A stretch of DNA of 64,000 nt. Source: a virus. Taxonomy: Duplodnaviria > Caudoviricetes. Positions within the stretch are counted from its first letter, which is position 1; every line of letters starts with the position of its first letter. Shown piece by piece: positions 2,378 to 8,914 of the stretch. The notes under the pieces were generated by a model. That model made no database searches, was not told the origin of the DNA, and was given only the letters and a program-made list of their open reading frames with translations. Position numbers and translations under genes: made by a program. The stretch lies in IMG/VR virus record IMGVR_UViG_3300018012_000099. One strand, given 5' to 3'.

Positions 2378-3739
2378 ATGCCAGCAACATCAGTAACGGA
2401 ACAGGGAAAACCAGAAGAAATAGTAGATAACATGCCTAATACAGAAGTTAAAACAGAAGATAAAATGGATGCTAGCAAGTTGGCGGCGCTAAAAGCCAAA
2501 AGTGAAACCAAACAACAGGAGAGTAAGATGGCAGCTAAGATCGTATCAAGAAAAGAAAGAAGTATTGCTTTAGGTGTAGTAGGATCGGGTCAAGCCGGCT
2601 CTAGATTAGCTGAAGCTTTTTATCAGCTAGGCTACGATACAGTAGCTATCAATACTGCCATGCAAGATTTAAAATTTATTAACATTCCAGATGCCAACAA
2701 ACTATTGTTAGAGCACGGTTTGGGTGGAGCGGCTAAAGAAATTGAAATTGGTCGTGCGGCAGCCGAATCGCATCGTGGCGAAATTCTTCAAATGCTGAAC
2801 GATAAGTTAGCTGGTTCCCAGATTAATTTACTCTGCCTTTCTTTAGGGGGCGGTTCGGGAGCAGGTTCTTGTGAAACTTTGGTTGACGTTCTGTCTGGCA
2901 CAGGTAAGCCACTAGTAGTAATTACTGTGCTCCCGATGGATAATGAAGATGCTCAAACTAAGACTAACGCGTTAGAAACTCTTTCTAAGTTAGCTAGAAT
3001 GGCTCAAAATAAAAAGATTAATAACCTAATTGTAGTTGATAACGCTAAACTAGAAGTTATCTACCATAACGTTAGTCAAATGGAATTCTTCGGTGTTGCT
3101 AACAAGGCAATTGTAGAGCCTATCGATATTTTTAATACGCTCTCTTCCATGCCATCCTCCGTCAAAGGACTTGATCCTATGGAGTGGGGCAAGCTATTCA
3201 CTGATGGTGAAGGTTTGACGGTTTATGGGGAATTGACTGTGGATAACTTTTCTGAAGACACCGCTATTGCCGAAGCAGTGGTTAACAATTTGAATGGTAA
3301 TTTGTTAGCTGGTGGTTTTGATCTTAAACAATCGAGATATGTGGGCGTAATTATTGCTGCCAACAAAGAGGTTTGGGCAAAGATTCCAAGCTCTAGTATC
3401 ACTTATGCTATGGCTATGATCAATGATCAATGTGGTACTCCTAAGGGAGTTTTCAAAGGTATTTACACCGTAGAAACTCCTGACCCTGTTGTCAAAGTAT
3501 ACAGTATGTTCAGCGGTCTCGGTTTGCCAGAGTCCCGCGTCACTCAGCTCAAGAAGGAAGCTCACGAGCACACCACCGCTGTCAAGAACAAGGATGAAGC
3601 TCGTAACCTCAATCTACAATTGGAAACGGGCACTAACGAAACGGTTTCTGCGGCACAAAAGATCAAAGATAAGATGGCTGCCAAATCTTCTGCTTTTGGT
3701 AAACTGGTTGGAGGGGTGGTAGATAGGCGCAAACAATGA
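2378..3739 (+). CDS. Tubulin/FtsZ-family GTPase (TubZ/PhuZ-like)
   Basis: GVVGSGQAGSRLA (T1), AINTAMQDL, signature LGGGSGAG, IVVDN, T7-like GLDPME; charged C-terminal tail. Confidence 0.9.
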   Translation: MPATSVTEQGKPEEIVDNMPNTEVKTEDKMDASKLAALKAKSETKQQESKMAAKIVSRKERSIALGVVGSGQAGSRLAEAFYQLGYDTVAINTAMQDLKFINIPDANKLLLEHGLGGAAKEIEIGRAAAESHRGEILQMLNDKLAGSQINLLCLSLGGGSGAGSCETLVDVLSGTGKPLVVITVLPMDNEDAQTKTNALETLSKLARMAQNKKINNLIVVDNAKLEVIYHNVSQMEFFGVANKAIVEPIDIFNTLSSMPSSVKGLDPMEWGKLFTDGEGLTVYGELTVDNFSEDTAIAEAVVNNLNGNLLAGGFDLKQSRYVGVIIAANKEVWAKIPSSSITYAMAMINDQCGTPKGVFKGIYTVETPDPVVKVYSMFSGLGLPESRVTQLKKEAHEHTTAVKNKDEARNLNLQLETGTNETVSAAQKIKDKMAAKSSAFGKLVGGVVDRRKQ

Positions 3740-3799
3740 GTAGTCTATACTGGATTTATTGTCTAGAGAATAAAATCGATGAAAAATATAGGAAAAGTA

Positions 3800-4078
3800 A
3801 TGAATCAGGACAATAAACATAGAATGGTATCCCTTTTAGGTAGTTGCCTAAATAAACTAGTAACCGTTTATACAGATGCGGGAACCAACTATACTGGTGT
3901 GTTGAAAGAGATTAAACCAGAAATTATTGATAACTACATAATATTAAGCACCTGGGATTCTTCTTCTCAAAAAGTAGATGGTTCTAAAATAGTCTCTTTT
4001 TACTGTGGCGAAGATGGGCTTAACCTGGAAGTAAGAGAGCTTATTGGAAAGTTTTATGAGAATAGGAGAAAGTCATAA
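3800..4078 (+). CDS. Sm/Hfq-fold-like protein A
   Basis: LNKLVTVYTDAGTNYTGVLKEI..NYIILST..VDGSKIVSF fits the Sm1/Sm2 pattern; paralog of 4681. Confidence 0.55.
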   Translation: MNQDNKHRMVSLLGSCLNKLVTVYTDAGTNYTGVLKEIKPEIIDNYIILSTWDSSSQKVDGSKIVSFYCGEDGLNLEVRELIGKFYENRRKS

Positions 4079-4362
4079 TGGAAATTTTAGAATCGGACAA
4101 ATTCTATGATGTATTGGCTAAATTAGATGGTACGGAAGTTACCGTATACACTACCCACGGGAAAAATTTTAGTGGTCTTTTGCATTTTTCACGCAACAGT
4201 TTTGTGGTGGAACTTATTCCGACCGATAAATGGGAATTAAAGCGATATGGCTCTTCTTTTGTTCCAATTGGTGTTGTCTTTGCTGCACGCGAATTAAAAC
4301 CGTGCAGTTCTGATGAATCTAAAGATGATGGTTGTGATGACTGCGATGAAAGCAAAGGTTAA
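4078..4362 (+). CDS. Sm/Hfq-fold-like protein B with acidic tail
   Basis: LDGTEVTVYTTHGKNFSGLL; paralog of 4365 (LxP...xYG...V..A.R). Confidence 0.5.
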   Translation: MEILESDKFYDVLAKLDGTEVTVYTTHGKNFSGLLHFSRNSFVVELIPTDKWELKRYGSSFVPIGVVFAARELKPCSSDESKDDGCDDCDESKG

Positions 4363-4364
4363 AG

Positions 4365-4673
4365 ATGGAATCGGATATTCTTAAGAATTTTATCAAACAA
4401 GACGTGGAAATATTGGTGGGAGGCGTGTGGATCGAAGGTTATTTGCTCCCTATCGTCAAAAACATCGTGACATTAGTTCCAATTGGATTAGCTAAAGAAC
4501 ATTATGGACCTACCGCTTGCAAAATGGAAGTTATCCAGGCTATTAGGCAGGTGAGAAGACCAGCGCAGACCAATTCCGCCGTTCCCAACGATCCGTCCCC
4601 TCCGGCATCAGTTCGTTCCGGTTTTGAAGCAGCTCAACAAGGTCACCCCGGTAACCGATTTGTCCATAAATAA
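4365..4673 (+). CDS. Sm/Hfq-fold-like protein B' with Pro-rich tail
   Basis: LKNFIKQDVEILVGGVWIEGYL..IVTLVP..IQAIRQV. Confidence 0.5.
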   Translation: MESDILKNFIKQDVEILVGGVWIEGYLLPIVKNIVTLVPIGLAKEHYGPTACKMEVIQAIRQVRRPAQTNSAVPNDPSPPASVRSGFEAAQQGHPGNRFVHK

Positions 4674-4680
4674 GGAGAAA

Positions 4681-4905
4681 ATGATGAGACAGAATGAACA
4701 TAGGATGGTATCTCTAATTGGTAACTATTTAAGTAAAAATGTCAGCATAAATATAAGCGGTGGCACCGTGCTTTATGGCAAATTACTGGAAATAAAACCA
4801 GAAAAAATTGATAATTATTTAATTCTTGAAACAAGCTTTGGAACAAGATATGTGGATGCATCACGCATAGAATCTTTTGCAATTGATGAACACAAGCCGG
4901 AATAA
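4681..4905 (+). CDS. Sm/Hfq-fold-like protein A'
   Basis: AAGGAG SD; YLSKNVSINISGGTVLYGKLLEI..NYLILETSFGTRYVDASRIESF; shares HRMVSL and EIKPExIDNY with 3800. Confidence 0.6.
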   Translation: MMRQNEHRMVSLIGNYLSKNVSINISGGTVLYGKLLEIKPEKIDNYLILETSFGTRYVDASRIESFAIDEHKPE

Positions 4906-4919
4906 TTACACATTATTGT

Positions 4920-5492
4920 ATGTCTCAATGCACAATTTATCTACTTAAAAATACCATTAATTCTAAAGTTTACGTAGGTCAAACTTGGTATACTTTGCCA
5001 GAACGATGGAAAGGCGGTGCTGGTTACGTGCACTGTGCATATTTACATAATGCAATCAATAAATATGGTGCTGATAAATTTTGCTACGAAATTTTAGCTA
5101 CCACCTCTAATCAAGAAAATGCCGATTATCTCGAAGATTATTACATCAATTATTTTGACAGTCGTAACAAGGATAAAGGATATAATATTAGAGAAGGTGG
5201 CAGTCGTGGCAAAAATTCTGATGAAACTATAATTAAAATGTCCAAGGCGCAAATGGGTGAGAAAAATGCTATGTTTGGCAAACGTCACTCACCAGATACT
5301 AAAAAATTGATGTCGGAAAATAGAGAAGATAGTAGCGGTGAGAAAAATCCTAGAGCGGTTCTCACTGAAAAATTAGTAGAAGAAATTAGAATTGATACCA
5401 GATCTGAAAGAGTTATAGCAAAAGAATATGGCGTATCTCGATCTACCATTAACAGTATCAAACGTGGTATAAATTGGAGAAACAATGGCTAA
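4920..5492 (+). CDS. GIY-YIG homing endonuclease (free-standing)
   Basis: TIYLLKN..KVYVGQT, GYNIREGG, NUMOD3-like and C-terminal HTH segments. Confidence 0.9.
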   Translation: MSQCTIYLLKNTINSKVYVGQTWYTLPERWKGGAGYVHCAYLHNAINKYGADKFCYEILATTSNQENADYLEDYYINYFDSRNKDKGYNIREGGSRGKNSDETIIKMSKAQMGEKNAMFGKRHSPDTKKLMSENREDSSGEKNPRAVLTEKLVEEIRIDTRSERVIAKEYGVSRSTINSIKRGINWRNNG

Positions 5493-6339
5493 TTTAATTA
5501 AAGGGATAGATGTCAGTATTATTCAGGGCAATATTGATTGGCAGGCTGTGGTTGCATCTGGTATACAATTTTGTATAATGAGATGTGGGGTCGGCAACGG
5601 TGGAATAGATTCTAATTATGCTAAAAATGTTGCTGGGGCTAAGGCAGCAGGAATTAAAGTGGCATGTTATCATTTTATTTATCCTTTACCTACCATACCT
5701 TCACAGCCTTTACGCGATCCTATTAAACAGGCTCAATATCATTTTAACGCTTCTTTGGGCGAATTAACTTGTGTGGATTGTGAATGGCCCGCACCACAAG
5801 ATTGGAGTAAATGGGGCTGTAATTCTGCGCAGCTCAACCAGTGGATGTTAACCTATTTACAAGAATACGAGCGCCTTAGTGGTCGTAAGCCGCTTATTTA
5901 TACTTATCCAAATTGGGCTGATAATGTTGGTTTTCAAGCAGCATTTTCCCAGTATCCCTTGTGGATTGCCAGTTATCAAGCCAATCCGGACATTCCGCAC
6001 CCATGGTCCGATTGGGTGCTATGGCAGAACACAGGTGGAGGCGGACATTTACCAACCACAGGTGCACCCGTAGATACTGATTTAGCTAAAGATCTTTCAT
6101 TATGGGATACAACAGCAGCACCCACTAATGAGCCTATACCAGATCACCAACCTGATCCTCCTATCAATTCAAACCCAGTTCCAGCACCCATCACGCCACC
6201 CCCGGCTGTAACGCCAACTTCACCGCCTGTTATTATGGTGCCACCTACTACCAACACCGTGAGTAAGGATTTTAATATTGTGATGGGATTATTTCGTGCC
6301 TTATTGAATTTATTTAAAGAAGAGTTGCCCAAGCTATAA
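5485..6339 (+). CDS. GH25 lysozyme (endolysin) with Pro-rich linker and amphipathic C-terminal helix
   Basis: GIDVS..QGNIDW, YHF, DCE, IYT, LWIASY, WVLWQ, VDTD. Confidence 0.9.
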   Translation: MANLIKGIDVSIIQGNIDWQAVVASGIQFCIMRCGVGNGGIDSNYAKNVAGAKAAGIKVACYHFIYPLPTIPSQPLRDPIKQAQYHFNASLGELTCVDCEWPAPQDWSKWGCNSAQLNQWMLTYLQEYERLSGRKPLIYTYPNWADNVGFQAAFSQYPLWIASYQANPDIPHPWSDWVLWQNTGGGGHLPTTGAPVDTDLAKDLSLWDTTAAPTNEPIPDHQPDPPINSNPVPAPITPPPAVTPTSPPVIMVPPTTNTVSKDFNIVMGLFRALLNLFKEELPKL

Positions 6340-6385
6340 ACTATTAGAATGTCGAGAAAAAGGTGCCGGTTATATATGAATCAGC

Positions 6386-7909
6386 ATGGCTAAACTCGTC
6401 ATCAAGGGCAACACCTCACAGATTATGGAAGAGGCGGATGTGGGGCATATTCTTGCTCTAGATAAACATTTGTCTTTTTTCGTTCAGGGCGCGGAGCACA
6501 CTGCGGCTTATCGCGGTTTCATCAACCGCGATGGTGATTATGTCAAGTGGGATGGTTTTAAGAAATTACTTACACCCACCTTACAGTTAGCTACAGGTTT
6601 GGTAGATAGGGTCAAAGATTTCTATCAGGTGGCTGGTAAGCCATTGGAAATTGTGGATCGACGTCCCGCTAAATCAGTAGGAAAAGAGCGACATATTCTG
6701 TTTAATTTGCAAAAGATTAACAAACTTCCTTACCCTTACCAATTAGAAATTTTAGATGTCATTGACAAATATGATCGAGGAATTATAAAGGTAGCTACGG
6801 GTGGTGGCAAATCTTTGATCGCCGCTCTTATTGCTGCAAAATTAGGTAAAAAGACTATTATTTATGTTATTGGTAAAGATTTATTATACCAGTTTCACGC
6901 GTTTTTTTCACAGGTATTCGACGAACCTATCGGTATCATTGGTGATGGTCAGTGCGAGATACATGACATCAATATCGCTAGTATTTGGACAGTGGGTCAA
7001 GCCATTGGTATGAAGAAGAATGAGATTCTGTTAGATTCTGACGATGAGGAGGAGACTCTCAGTAAGAACAAATATGCTAATATTGAACGGATGATGAAGG
7101 ATGCTAAAGTCCATATCATTGACGAATGTCATATGTCAGCCTGCGAAACCGTTCAACAGATTTTCAAGCACTCTAAACCAGAACACCTATACGGCTTGAG
7201 TGGTAGTCCGTGGCGTGATGATGGCGCCGATCTATTAATTGAATCAGTGCTGGGTAAATATATTGTCAATATTCCAGCTTCTCGTTTGATTAGGGAGGGA
7301 TATTTAGCCAAAGCTATTATTCGATTTCGTGTTGTTCCTCCCTACCCATATGATATTGAAAAATCGTATCCTTCTATCTATAAGAAGTATGTGGTAGAAA
7401 ATGAAGTTCGCAACGGTTTAATTTTGGATGCTGCCAAAACGCTGGTAGGTAAAGGCTATCAAACATTAATCTTGTTCAGTAGTCTTAAACATGGCAGGAT
7501 TCTATACGATCTGTTTAAGCAACACATGAAGTGTGCTATTCTGGATGGTAGTAACGATAAAGATGAGCGACAGCAAGTTAAAAAGGATTTAGAAGATCGT
7601 AAGATCGATTGTATTCTAGCTTCCAAGATTTTTGATATCGGAGTAGATATTCCTAGTTTAGCAGGATTGGTTATCGCTTGTGGTGGCAAATCTACTGTCA
7701 AGGCGTTACAAAGGGTAGGGAGGGTCATCCGTAAATATCCTGGTAAAACATTTGCGGTAGTAATAGATTTCTGTGATCAAATAACCTATCTAGATAATCA
7801 TTCGCGCATTCGACACAAGATTTATACCTCAGAGGACGGTTTCGACGTCAATTGGCCCATCGAAGAAAAGAAAAAGAGAAAGTCAAAGAAACATGATAAA
7901 GAAGAGTGA
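6386..7909 (+). CDS. Superfamily 2 helicase (UvsW/Res-like)
   Basis: ATGGGKS (I), IIDECH (II), LSGSP (III), QRVGRVIR (VI). Confidence 0.9.
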   Translation: MAKLVIKGNTSQIMEEADVGHILALDKHLSFFVQGAEHTAAYRGFINRDGDYVKWDGFKKLLTPTLQLATGLVDRVKDFYQVAGKPLEIVDRRPAKSVGKERHILFNLQKINKLPYPYQLEILDVIDKYDRGIIKVATGGGKSLIAALIAAKLGKKTIIYVIGKDLLYQFHAFFSQVFDEPIGIIGDGQCEIHDINIASIWTVGQAIGMKKNEILLDSDDEEETLSKNKYANIERMMKDAKVHIIDECHMSACETVQQIFKHSKPEHLYGLSGSPWRDDGADLLIESVLGKYIVNIPASRLIREGYLAKAIIRFRVVPPYPYDIEKSYPSIYKKYVVENEVRNGLILDAAKTLVGKGYQTLILFSSLKHGRILYDLFKQHMKCAILDGSNDKDERQQVKKDLEDRKIDCILASKIFDIGVDIPSLAGLVIACGGKSTVKALQRVGRVIRKYPGKTFAVVIDFCDQITYLDNHSRIRHKIYTSEDGFDVNWPIEEKKKRKSKKHDKEE

Positions 7910-8486
7910 AGGGGAGCTTAATTCCATCCCTAACGAAAAATACGAGAAGTTCTTTGCTAAATTCGACGAGATCGAAACATTAGAGGTGTCACGATGGAAA
8001 ATTGCTCACCTCCTCGGCTATTTTTGTCAAAAATGGAAAGCTATCTATGGTAATGATTATCATTGGAAATTCAATAACCAAAACCCTAACAAGTGTTTCG
8101 AGGTGTGGCAGATGAACACGCTGGTGGCTAAACTATCAGCCAACCCACAAATCCTTAAAGATTATATTGATTGGGTTTTCGTCAATATCGTTCCCAAGAA
8201 GAGCAAACTGCGTTCTATTTCTTTTATGACCAATGATGATGTAGTCATTCCGTACAAGATGAACGTGTTATTAGGGGGTAAGAAGAATCTCAACGTGGAT
8301 CGTTCTACTCTTTTGCCCTTTGAATATCGTCATATTTTAGGTCATTGTGGATTATTATCTCTCGTTAGCTACGGAGATTTAGCTTTTGCTTATCAAATGG
8401 ATCCCCGTCCAGATAATCTTTCAGATGCCATTAATCAAATGGTCGAGGCTGGGTTCGATCCAGAAATTCTTAAAAGGATCGTATGA
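7893..8486 (+). CDS. Hypothetical protein in the replication block
   Basis: 197-aa ORF overlapping both neighbours; no recognisable motif. Confidence 0.6.
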   Translation: MIKKSEGELNSIPNEKYEKFFAKFDEIETLEVSRWKIAHLLGYFCQKWKAIYGNDYHWKFNNQNPNKCFEVWQMNTLVAKLSANPQILKDYIDWVFVNIVPKKSKLRSISFMTNDDVVIPYKMNVLLGGKKNLNVDRSTLLPFEYRHILGHCGLLSLVSYGDLAFAYQMDPRPDNLSDAINQMVEAGFDPEILKRIV

Positions 8487-8914
8487 TACCACAACCCGGA
8501 CAACATATTAAATGTTTTTTGCGCAGCGGCAATATAGTAGAGGGTATCGTAGAAGAGTGGACCCAAGAGCAAGCTGTATTGAAAACTTTAGATCACCAAA
8601 GTTTAATGATTATTCACAGTCCAGCCCAGGATATACTACTAACCAAAGTATTGCTCCACACGGGAATCGCCACTCACTCGAGAGCGCAAGAAATAGCCGA
8701 CAAAATTAGAGAAAAGGCAGCAGAGGAAGGTCAGCCTGAACCTGACGAACAATCTTTGGATGCAATGACCAAAGCACAATTACATATCGAGTTAGCTGAA
8801 CAAGAACGTCGTGTGGTTGCCGAGAAGATGAAGGATCACTATCCTGATTCACAGGCACCTAGAAAGAAAACCTATGGATACCCCGGATTTTTCAAAAAGC
8901 CAAGCACTTCGTAA
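8483..8914 (+). CDS. Hypothetical protein with Sm/Hfq-like N-terminus and coiled-coil C-terminus
   Basis: PGQHIKCFLRSGNIVEGIVEEW..AVLK; ATGA coupling. Confidence 0.5.
   Translation: MIPQPGQHIKCFLRSGNIVEGIVEEWTQEQAVLKTLDHQSLMIIHSPAQDILLTKVLLHTGIATHSRAQEIADKIREKAAEEGQPEPDEQSLDAMTKAQLHIELAEQERRVVAEKMKDHYPDSQAPRKKTYGYPGFFKKPSTS

Follow-up and report, generated by a model that had tools for sequence, protein, structure and literature searches.

Four adjacent small genes, here called A, B, B', and A', are located directly downstream of a phage tubulin gene in the IMG/VR virus record IMGVR_UViG_3300018012_000099 (Duplodnaviria; Caudoviricetes). Their products very probably all have the Sm fold, which was modelled for A and B' and would extend to A' and B by homology. 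The window, that is, the whole stretch of 64,000 nucleotides that was analyzed, belongs to a wetland jumbo phage, the uncultivated source of the A-B-B'-A' cassette, and the Sm-fold family was found in one uncultivated wetland jumbo phage lineage only. The cassette is likely to be accessory and not obligatorily tied to tubulin.

The preliminary description of this DNA had placed four plus-strand open reading frames (ORFs) directly 3' of a phage tubulin, and this arrangement was confirmed, the tubulin being of the TubZ/PhuZ type. Gene A (3800-4078; 92 amino acids, aa) encodes a predicted Sm-fold core (residues 1-70) that is followed by a low-confidence C-terminal helix, and gene B (4078-4362; 94 aa) encodes a predicted Sm-fold core with an acidic C-terminal tail that carries a CxxC pair. 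Gene B' (4365-4673; 102 aa) encodes a predicted core (residues 1-62), a Pro/Gln-rich linker, and a conserved C-terminal motif, and gene A' (4681-4905; 74 aa), which has AAGGAG upstream of its start, encodes a paralog of A. Each gene is preceded by a Shine-Dalgarno-like site and ends with TAA, with no internal stops, and the use of an alternative genetic code was considered and rejected on these grounds. The stop codon of A and the start codon of B overlap (TAATG), and B and B' are separated by 2 nt. The start of gene A was set at 3800 rather than 3779, in agreement with the N-terminus of its paralog A'.

Evidence for an Sm fold

Both sequence profiles and predicted structures supported the Sm/Hfq-like fold that had been proposed from a pattern common to the four proteins. 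The pattern itself (a helix, V-x-V, an invariant Gly-x-Leu, and short strands) was found to be real in a 12-sequence alignment. The combined family profile yielded 16 matches in the PDB, all of the Sm, LSm, or Hfq type except for the small archaeal protein 1ycy, and the best match (archaeal Sm, 1m8v/1h64; E 1e-3) covered the whole domain. The B-family profile matched SmAP3 (1m5q) at 1.2e-5 and archaeal Sm at 4e-4, and the B'-family profile by itself gave nothing significant against the PDB. The glycine of strand 2 (G33 in A numbering, position 32 of the profile) was invariant in 83 of 83 aligned sequences, which included the 12-sequence alignment, 23 of 23 B' sequences, and 48 of 48 B sequences. 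This residue is strictly conserved in Sm proteins (PMC3710371).

The AlphaFold2 (AF2) models of A and B' had the same topology, with an N-terminal helix followed by five strongly bent antiparallel strands. In the model of A, the core had a predicted local distance difference test (pLDDT) score of 80-89, with a helix at residues 3-16 and strands at residues 20-25, 30-40, 45-50, 56-60, and 64-69. The model of B' contained a helix at residues 3-9 and five strands, with a pLDDT of 95-97 over residues 1-60. Foldseek, one of the checks that had been proposed, ranked SmG/SmF/SmE, Gemin6/7, and SmAP at the top for A against the PDB (E from 1.7e-4), and the top matches to B' were mostly Sm and LSm proteins (E from 3.9e-3, probability 1.00). 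MnxE and Gemin6/7 were also among the top Foldseek matches for both models. The VIA aligner placed Hfq from Methanococcus (2qtx) and Synechocystis (3hfo) first for B' (Z 8.2), and the next rows, which included Staphylococcus aureus Hfq, YaeO/Rof (Z 7.7), RimP, and LSm, were close ties. Taken together, the top matches from both programs were mostly Sm, LSm, Hfq, Rof, and RimP-C, and the structural scores were modest, as expected of a 60-residue barrel. The ESM Atlas structural neighbors of B' were DUF6897, DUF2642, and RimP_C.

Kinship, selection, and spread of the family

The paralogy that had been claimed for A and A' holds (BLASTP, 50% identity, E 9e-19). The likeness claimed for B and B' is partly upheld: the two are homologous at the level of family profiles (hhalign 98.4%, E 4e-15, using alignments of 23 B' and 48 B sequences), but their relationship is undetectable in a pairwise comparison (E 0.36). 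Intermediate sequences linked A to a B orthologue (E 3.5e-5, with a second such link at E 5e-4), B to a third type, C (E 8.5e-5), and a B orthologue to a B' orthologue (E 2e-5). Judged from these sequence links, A, B, B', and A' are diverged members of one superfamily with a common ancestry.

The four genes are real and under selection. B' and its orthologue in the relative L001 differed at 75 of 306 bases, with 52 synonymous and 11 non-synonymous codon changes; B' is therefore under purifying selection.

A search of 1.84 billion representative proteins with the family profile yielded 118 matches at E <= 1e-3, including about 50 B-type clusters, about 20 B'-type clusters, and a few of the C type, and in this search the A and A' types were isolated, being seen in this phage alone. 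A word-based protein search with A returned only A itself, on 8 contigs. B was very divergent (about 50 clusters at 25-40% identity), and B' was the best conserved member (45-89% identity). The weaker profile matches were proteins of 250-570 aa that contained two to four tandem domain copies and were labelled DUF6897 or DUF2642. Within the window, the family hidden Markov model (HMM) detected A, B, B', and A' and no further copies. A weak match in record G002 (E 0.002), a 106-aa ORF adjoining a RecA-like gene, was not accepted as a member. No match to isolated phages was obtained in a DNA search with positions 2378-6400, and such cassettes were not found in the literature on phage Sm/Hfq-like proteins, on DUF2642/DUF6897, or on Sm-like proteins with PhuZ.

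Variation of the cassette among relatives

Relatives L001-L011 were retrieved through their tubulins, which were 69-94% identical to that of the window. All loci shared one backbone (glycosyltransferase, epimerase, tubulin, cassette, GH25 lysozyme, helicase, orf197, and orf143), within which the cassette ranged from zero to five small genes among 14 relatives. In the window (tubulin 100%), the tubulin gene is followed by A, B, B', A', and a homing endonuclease gene. B and B' alone followed tubulin in L001 (94%) and in L018/19 (88-91%), whereas the order was B', a basic 74-aa protein, and B in L020 (88%), an unclassified 92-aa protein and B' in L002 (85%), and a C fragment, B, and B' in L005 (83%). 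L006 (82%) contained C and B, after which the contig ended, and L008 (73%) contained C only. In L017 (72%), tubulin was followed by B', a 77-aa protein (LSM E 0.0065), and a basic 51-aa protein, and in L012-15 (67-68%) by a 97-aa protein, a basic 44-aa protein, B', a 72-aa protein (DUF6897 E 0.039), and a 75-aa protein. No cassette gene was present in L003/4 (81%), L007 (80%), or L010/11 (69%), and L009 (71%) carried only a helical 79-aa protein. The record of L009 comprises 447,763 bp and is rated 100% complete, and it contained no family member anywhere, although its tubulin retains the conserved C-terminal tail. The family is thus dispensable in a complete relative that keeps tubulin.

The divergence between the window and L001 was uneven, with 94% identity for tubulin, 89% for B', and 40% for B, which points to allele swapping. 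The 92-aa protein that takes the place of B in L002 (7359-7637) had no match to Pfam or to the family HMM; it contains I-D-N-Y-I, like A and A', and could thus represent an A-type barrel that has diverged greatly. Very basic small proteins rich in Lys and Arg (44-107 aa), which have the motif F-S-L..Y-L in common, were observed in the cassettes of L012 (1790-1924), L017 (4591-4746), L020 (1235-1459), and L016 (87-410), often adjoining the acidic-tailed B type, and none was present in the window cassette. In L010 and L011, the RmlB-like epimerase gene matched in two pieces (3878-4255 and 5378-5971) that were about 1.1 kb apart, which suggests an inserted element or intron.

Tails and hints of oligomers

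The tail of B in the window has a net charge of -6 over 20 residues, and most of the 48 members of the B family have acidic, Cys-bearing tails, usually with CxxC or CC. Among 23 B' sequences, a variable Pro/Gln-rich linker was followed by the motif [RK]-S-x-[FL]-[ED] ... P-G-x-R-F-[VI]-x-K. B' was always adjoined by at least one other small gene, and Sm-like support, at least at a sub-threshold level, was obtained for that neighbor in 7 of 8 distinct contexts. Neighboring small genes overlapped by one base in several of the relatives' loci. The tails, the neighbors of B', and the gene overlaps fit oligomers that include a partner, with specificity located in the tails. A complex prediction for full-length B and B' with family alignments scored 0.05, which speaks neither for nor against binding.

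The tail of B' (4600-4673; [RK]-S-[SGA]-F-[ED] ... R-F-V-x-K) and that of tubulin (3680-3739; K-S-S-A-F-G-K ... D-R-R-K) open in a similar manner and both end with basic residues, a likeness that may be due to chance.

Tubulin and neighboring genes

The tubulin gene (2378-3739, plus strand) encodes a TubZ/PhuZ-like GTPase of 453 aa (Pfam Tubulin 4e-14, TubZ-like_C 5e-8; PHROG tubulin PhuZ 5.6e-8) with a conserved basic C-terminal tail, the ending of which (FGK..VDRRK) was kept in all relatives. Its nearest isolate tubulin, and the sole detectable isolate relative, is that of Bacillus phage G (24% identity), and by this comparison and the DNA search the phage lacks any cultivated relative. A sigma-70-like promoter match (TTGAAC, an 18-nt spacer, and TG-TATAAT) lies in front of the tubulin gene on the plus strand (2328-2357), and this pattern match was the best promoter-like match between 2200 and 6500 (10/12). 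No terminator-like site was seen between tubulin and position 5878. A single transcript of tubulin and the four small genes is plausible because of this promoter and the lack of a terminator before 5878, and the small genes are probably transcribed with tubulin.

A gene for a GIY-YIG/NUMOD3 homing endonuclease (4920-5492, plus strand; NUMOD3 1.3e-12, GIY-YIG 3.4e-6, PHROG homing endonuclease 5e-31) is located between A' and the lysozyme gene. GIY-YIG/NUMOD3 genes occupied other intergenic sites around tubulin in L003/L004 (5291-5944), L005 (768-1421), and L007 (571-1134 and 4194-4763). These shifting sites fit a mosaic neighborhood, and the homing endonuclease likely drives the local mosaicism. 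Downstream, the variable cassette is bordered by the GH25 endolysin gene (5485-6339, plus strand; Glyco_hydro_25 2e-35), which was the syntenic border in most relatives. The endolysin has a long Pro-rich C-terminal extension with a hydrophobic/basic end that is conserved in style among relatives, and no holin was identified near it.

A separate core gene outside the cassette (8483-8914, plus strand; 143 aa) encodes a protein with an Hfq-like N-terminal region of about 58 residues. It is part of the replication module, after the helicase gene and orf197 and before DnaC-like and DnaB-like genes, and each of the 10 distinct relatives whose sequence extends to this point has an orthologue, the complete 447-kb relative among them. 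The profile of its N-terminal domain matched Hfq in the PDB (3ahu at 1.7e-3, 1kq1 at 5.5e-3), and most rows were Hfq or LSm. Kinship between this gene and the cassette family was considered and rejected (hhalign 25%). Its conserved C-terminus (Y-G-Y-P-G-F-F-K-K-P) loosely recalls P-G-x-R-F-V-x-K in the tail of B'.

Proposed function and competing explanations

The explanation favored here, with a confidence slightly short of even, is that the cassette encodes a lineage-specific accessory family of Sm-fold oligomers, which probably bind single-stranded nucleic acid or act as a scaffold. Diverged Sm-fold paralogs would be maintained in a recombination-prone cassette between the tubulin and the endolysin/helicase genes, and each paralog would assemble via its beta4-beta5 edges into small rings that are either homomeric or mixed with the neighboring paralog. 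During early or middle infection, such rings would use a non-canonical surface either to bind single-stranded nucleic acid (RNA being the likeliest) or to serve as hubs. The tails would be the specific parts of the rings: the acidic CxxC tail of B could mimic nucleic acid and thereby auto-inhibit the protein, or could provide a metal site, comparable to the acidic C-terminal domain of Hfq, and the linker-tethered motif of B' could be a docking peptide for a partner. Whether the paralogs may form rings is an even call, and nucleic-acid binding is possible rather than probable.

Several observations weigh against this explanation. None of the four window proteins reached a gathering threshold in Pfam; the best scores were 16.8 bits for SM-ATX (PF14438; cut-off 29.8) and 13.2 bits for LSM (PF01423; cut-off 23.4), and the sub-threshold E-values were 0.0077-0.037 for SM-ATX, 0.074 for LSM, and 0.013 for DUF6897. 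The last of these (PF21838; cut-off 23.9 bits) was a hint for A' (E 0.013, 15.6 bits), which also gave hints of ROF and DUF2642; A, B, and B' were not listed for DUF6897, and the Pfam Hfq family (PF17209) was not listed for any of the four. The C-type paralog of L006 passed the DUF6897 cut-off (25.6 vs 23.9 bits). The uridine pocket of archaeal Sm proteins, which is taken here to consist of His37 and Asn39 (loop 3) and Arg63 (loop 5) of Pyrococcus abyssi Sm, was placed on the family profile through the alignment of the combined profile to archaeal Sm. The corresponding positions are I/N/D in A and A', N/F/P in the window B (variable/variable/D in the majority of the B family), and V/N/K in the window B' (V/G/K in the majority of the B' family), and the canonical pocket thus appears not to be conserved in the four proteins or their families. 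In addition, the protein cores are near neutral rather than basic (isoelectric point 6 to 8). The locus occurs in 14 sequencing runs, all of them DNA metagenomes from wetlands and none of them RNA, which leaves expression and operon structure unproven. Finally, the cassette turns over rapidly, which is as compatible with a role in host interaction as with an RNA role. Classical Sm-type RNA control, which the preliminary description had suggested, is doubtful because other residues occupy the uridine-pocket positions of the four proteins and of their families; binding of RNA or single-stranded DNA via another surface is possible.

Co-assembly of the paralogs into one heteromeric Sm-like ring, an arrangement in the style of eukaryotes that would control RNA and that the preliminary description had put forward, is unlikely. 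The tandem arrangement of four paralogs with coupled starts agrees with such a ring, as does the finding that B' never occurred without another adjoining small gene, usually an Sm-like one; distant DUF6897/DUF2642 relatives fuse two to four copies per chain, and mixed rings are known for Sm paralogs (PMC3710371). However, a ring of defined composition is ill-fitting because the paralog set differs among relatives (B with B', C with B, C alone, or B' with other types), A and A' are confined to this phage, and the canonical RNA-pocket residues are missing. It is likewise improbable that the proteins are host-directed accessory barrels, which would bind a protein of the host (for example, a factor in defence or in transcription/termination) and block or redirect it in the manner of Rof/YaeO, an Sm-fold protein that binds Rho. 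The gain, loss, and allele swapping of genes at a hot spot that adjoins a homing endonuclease gene, the strong divergence of B, and the dispensability of the family in the complete relative would all suit host-directed proteins; YaeO/Rof was among the top structural matches to B', and the acidic tail could mimic nucleic acid. On the other hand, the sequence match to Rof was not significant (E 0.12), B' is well conserved, unlike typical arms-race genes, and the structural rows at Z 7 to 8 are ties.

The case for a tubulin cargo adaptor is one of gene position alone and fared poorly, with the cassette being absent in about a third of the relatives. An Sm-fold protein that links DNA, RNA, or capsids to the filament in the role of TubR or TubY is very unlikely, even though all loci that contain the family, including distant ones detected via B and B' homologues, have it directly after tubulin. 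In the synteny check that had been proposed, no family member was present next to tubulin in L003/4, L007, L009, and L010/11. Because all of the positive loci belong to one lineage and share one backbone, the adjacency was inherited once, without independent recurrence, and counts as a single observation. No TubR-like winged-helix gene flanks the window tubulin, while Bacillus phage G has a winged-helix-like candidate just upstream of its tubulin (recognized by eye only), and the tail of B' loosely resembles K-S-S-A-F of the tubulin tail, which may well be chance; these points would favor an adaptor. Opposed to them are the complete 447-kb relative, in which a tubulin of 71% identity with the same tail is retained and the family is absent genome-wide, the tubulin loci of L003/4, L007, and L010/11 without the family, and a fold unlike that of known tubulin adaptors. 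The seven small genes near the tubulin of Bacillus phage G included no family member. A virus-encoded heteromeric Sm-type ring of B' and an adjacent paralog, which would present several copies of a tethered peptide that resembles the C-terminal tail of tubulin and could therefore dock on the filament or on a tail-binding partner and couple RNA or other cargo to the bacterial-virus cytoskeleton, is a far-fetched prospect. Both the mixed RNA ring and the tubulin adaptor are weakened because the RNA pocket is missing and the cassette is dispensable, and neither reading of the four genes was supported by any test that was run. The accessory Sm-fold oligomer remains the favored explanation, and the result removes a tempting but unsupported link between the cassette and tubulin.

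Relation to known systems and significance

Archaeal SmAP proteins (1m8v/1h64 of P. abyssi and 1m5q, the Pyrobaculum SmAP3) were the best profile matches to the cassette family over the full domain, with which they share the strand-2 glycine, a K-R-Y-G stretch before strand 4, and the topology of a helix plus five strands. In contrast to archaeal SmAP, the cassette family matches at only E 1e-3 to 1e-5 and below the LSM threshold, and it has not kept the His/Asn/Arg pocket; moreover, B and B' have conserved tails of their own, and the genes are viral and located in a variable cassette. Hfq structures (2qtx, 3hfo, and 1kq1) aligned to the B' model with Z scores of 8.2, 8.2, and 7.8 and a root-mean-square deviation of 1.6-2.2 Å over 53-57 residues, but the Z scores are tied with those of many small barrels, and there is no significant Pfam Hfq match. 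The acidic, disordered C-terminal tail of Escherichia coli Hfq, which auto-regulates RNA binding (PMC5606850), is comparable to the acidic tail of B and may be its nearest precedent. DUF6897 and DUF2642, small barrels of which many occur in Bacillota, are the cellular sequences most closely related to the family profile; they often form two to four tandem copies per protein, whereas the cassette copies are separate genes. The cassette resembles TubR/TubY systems in that small genes adjoin a TubZ-like tubulin gene, but TubR is a winged-helix protein, and the cassette family has a different fold and is not conserved with tubulin.

Rings of Sm, LSm, and Hfq proteins are central machines for the handling of RNA. 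Sets of multiple Sm paralogs typify eukaryotes, and in archaea the number of paralogs is one to three (PMC3710371). The present analysis defines a protein family that is not captured by Pfam and, apart from it, singles out an Hfq-like core gene of the replication module. A phage lineage with two to four adjacent, diverged Sm-fold genes, each with a conserved tail of its own, is a compact natural system, and the cassette bears on the specialization of Sm paralogs, on mixed rings outside eukaryotes, and on the use of such proteins by jumbo phages.

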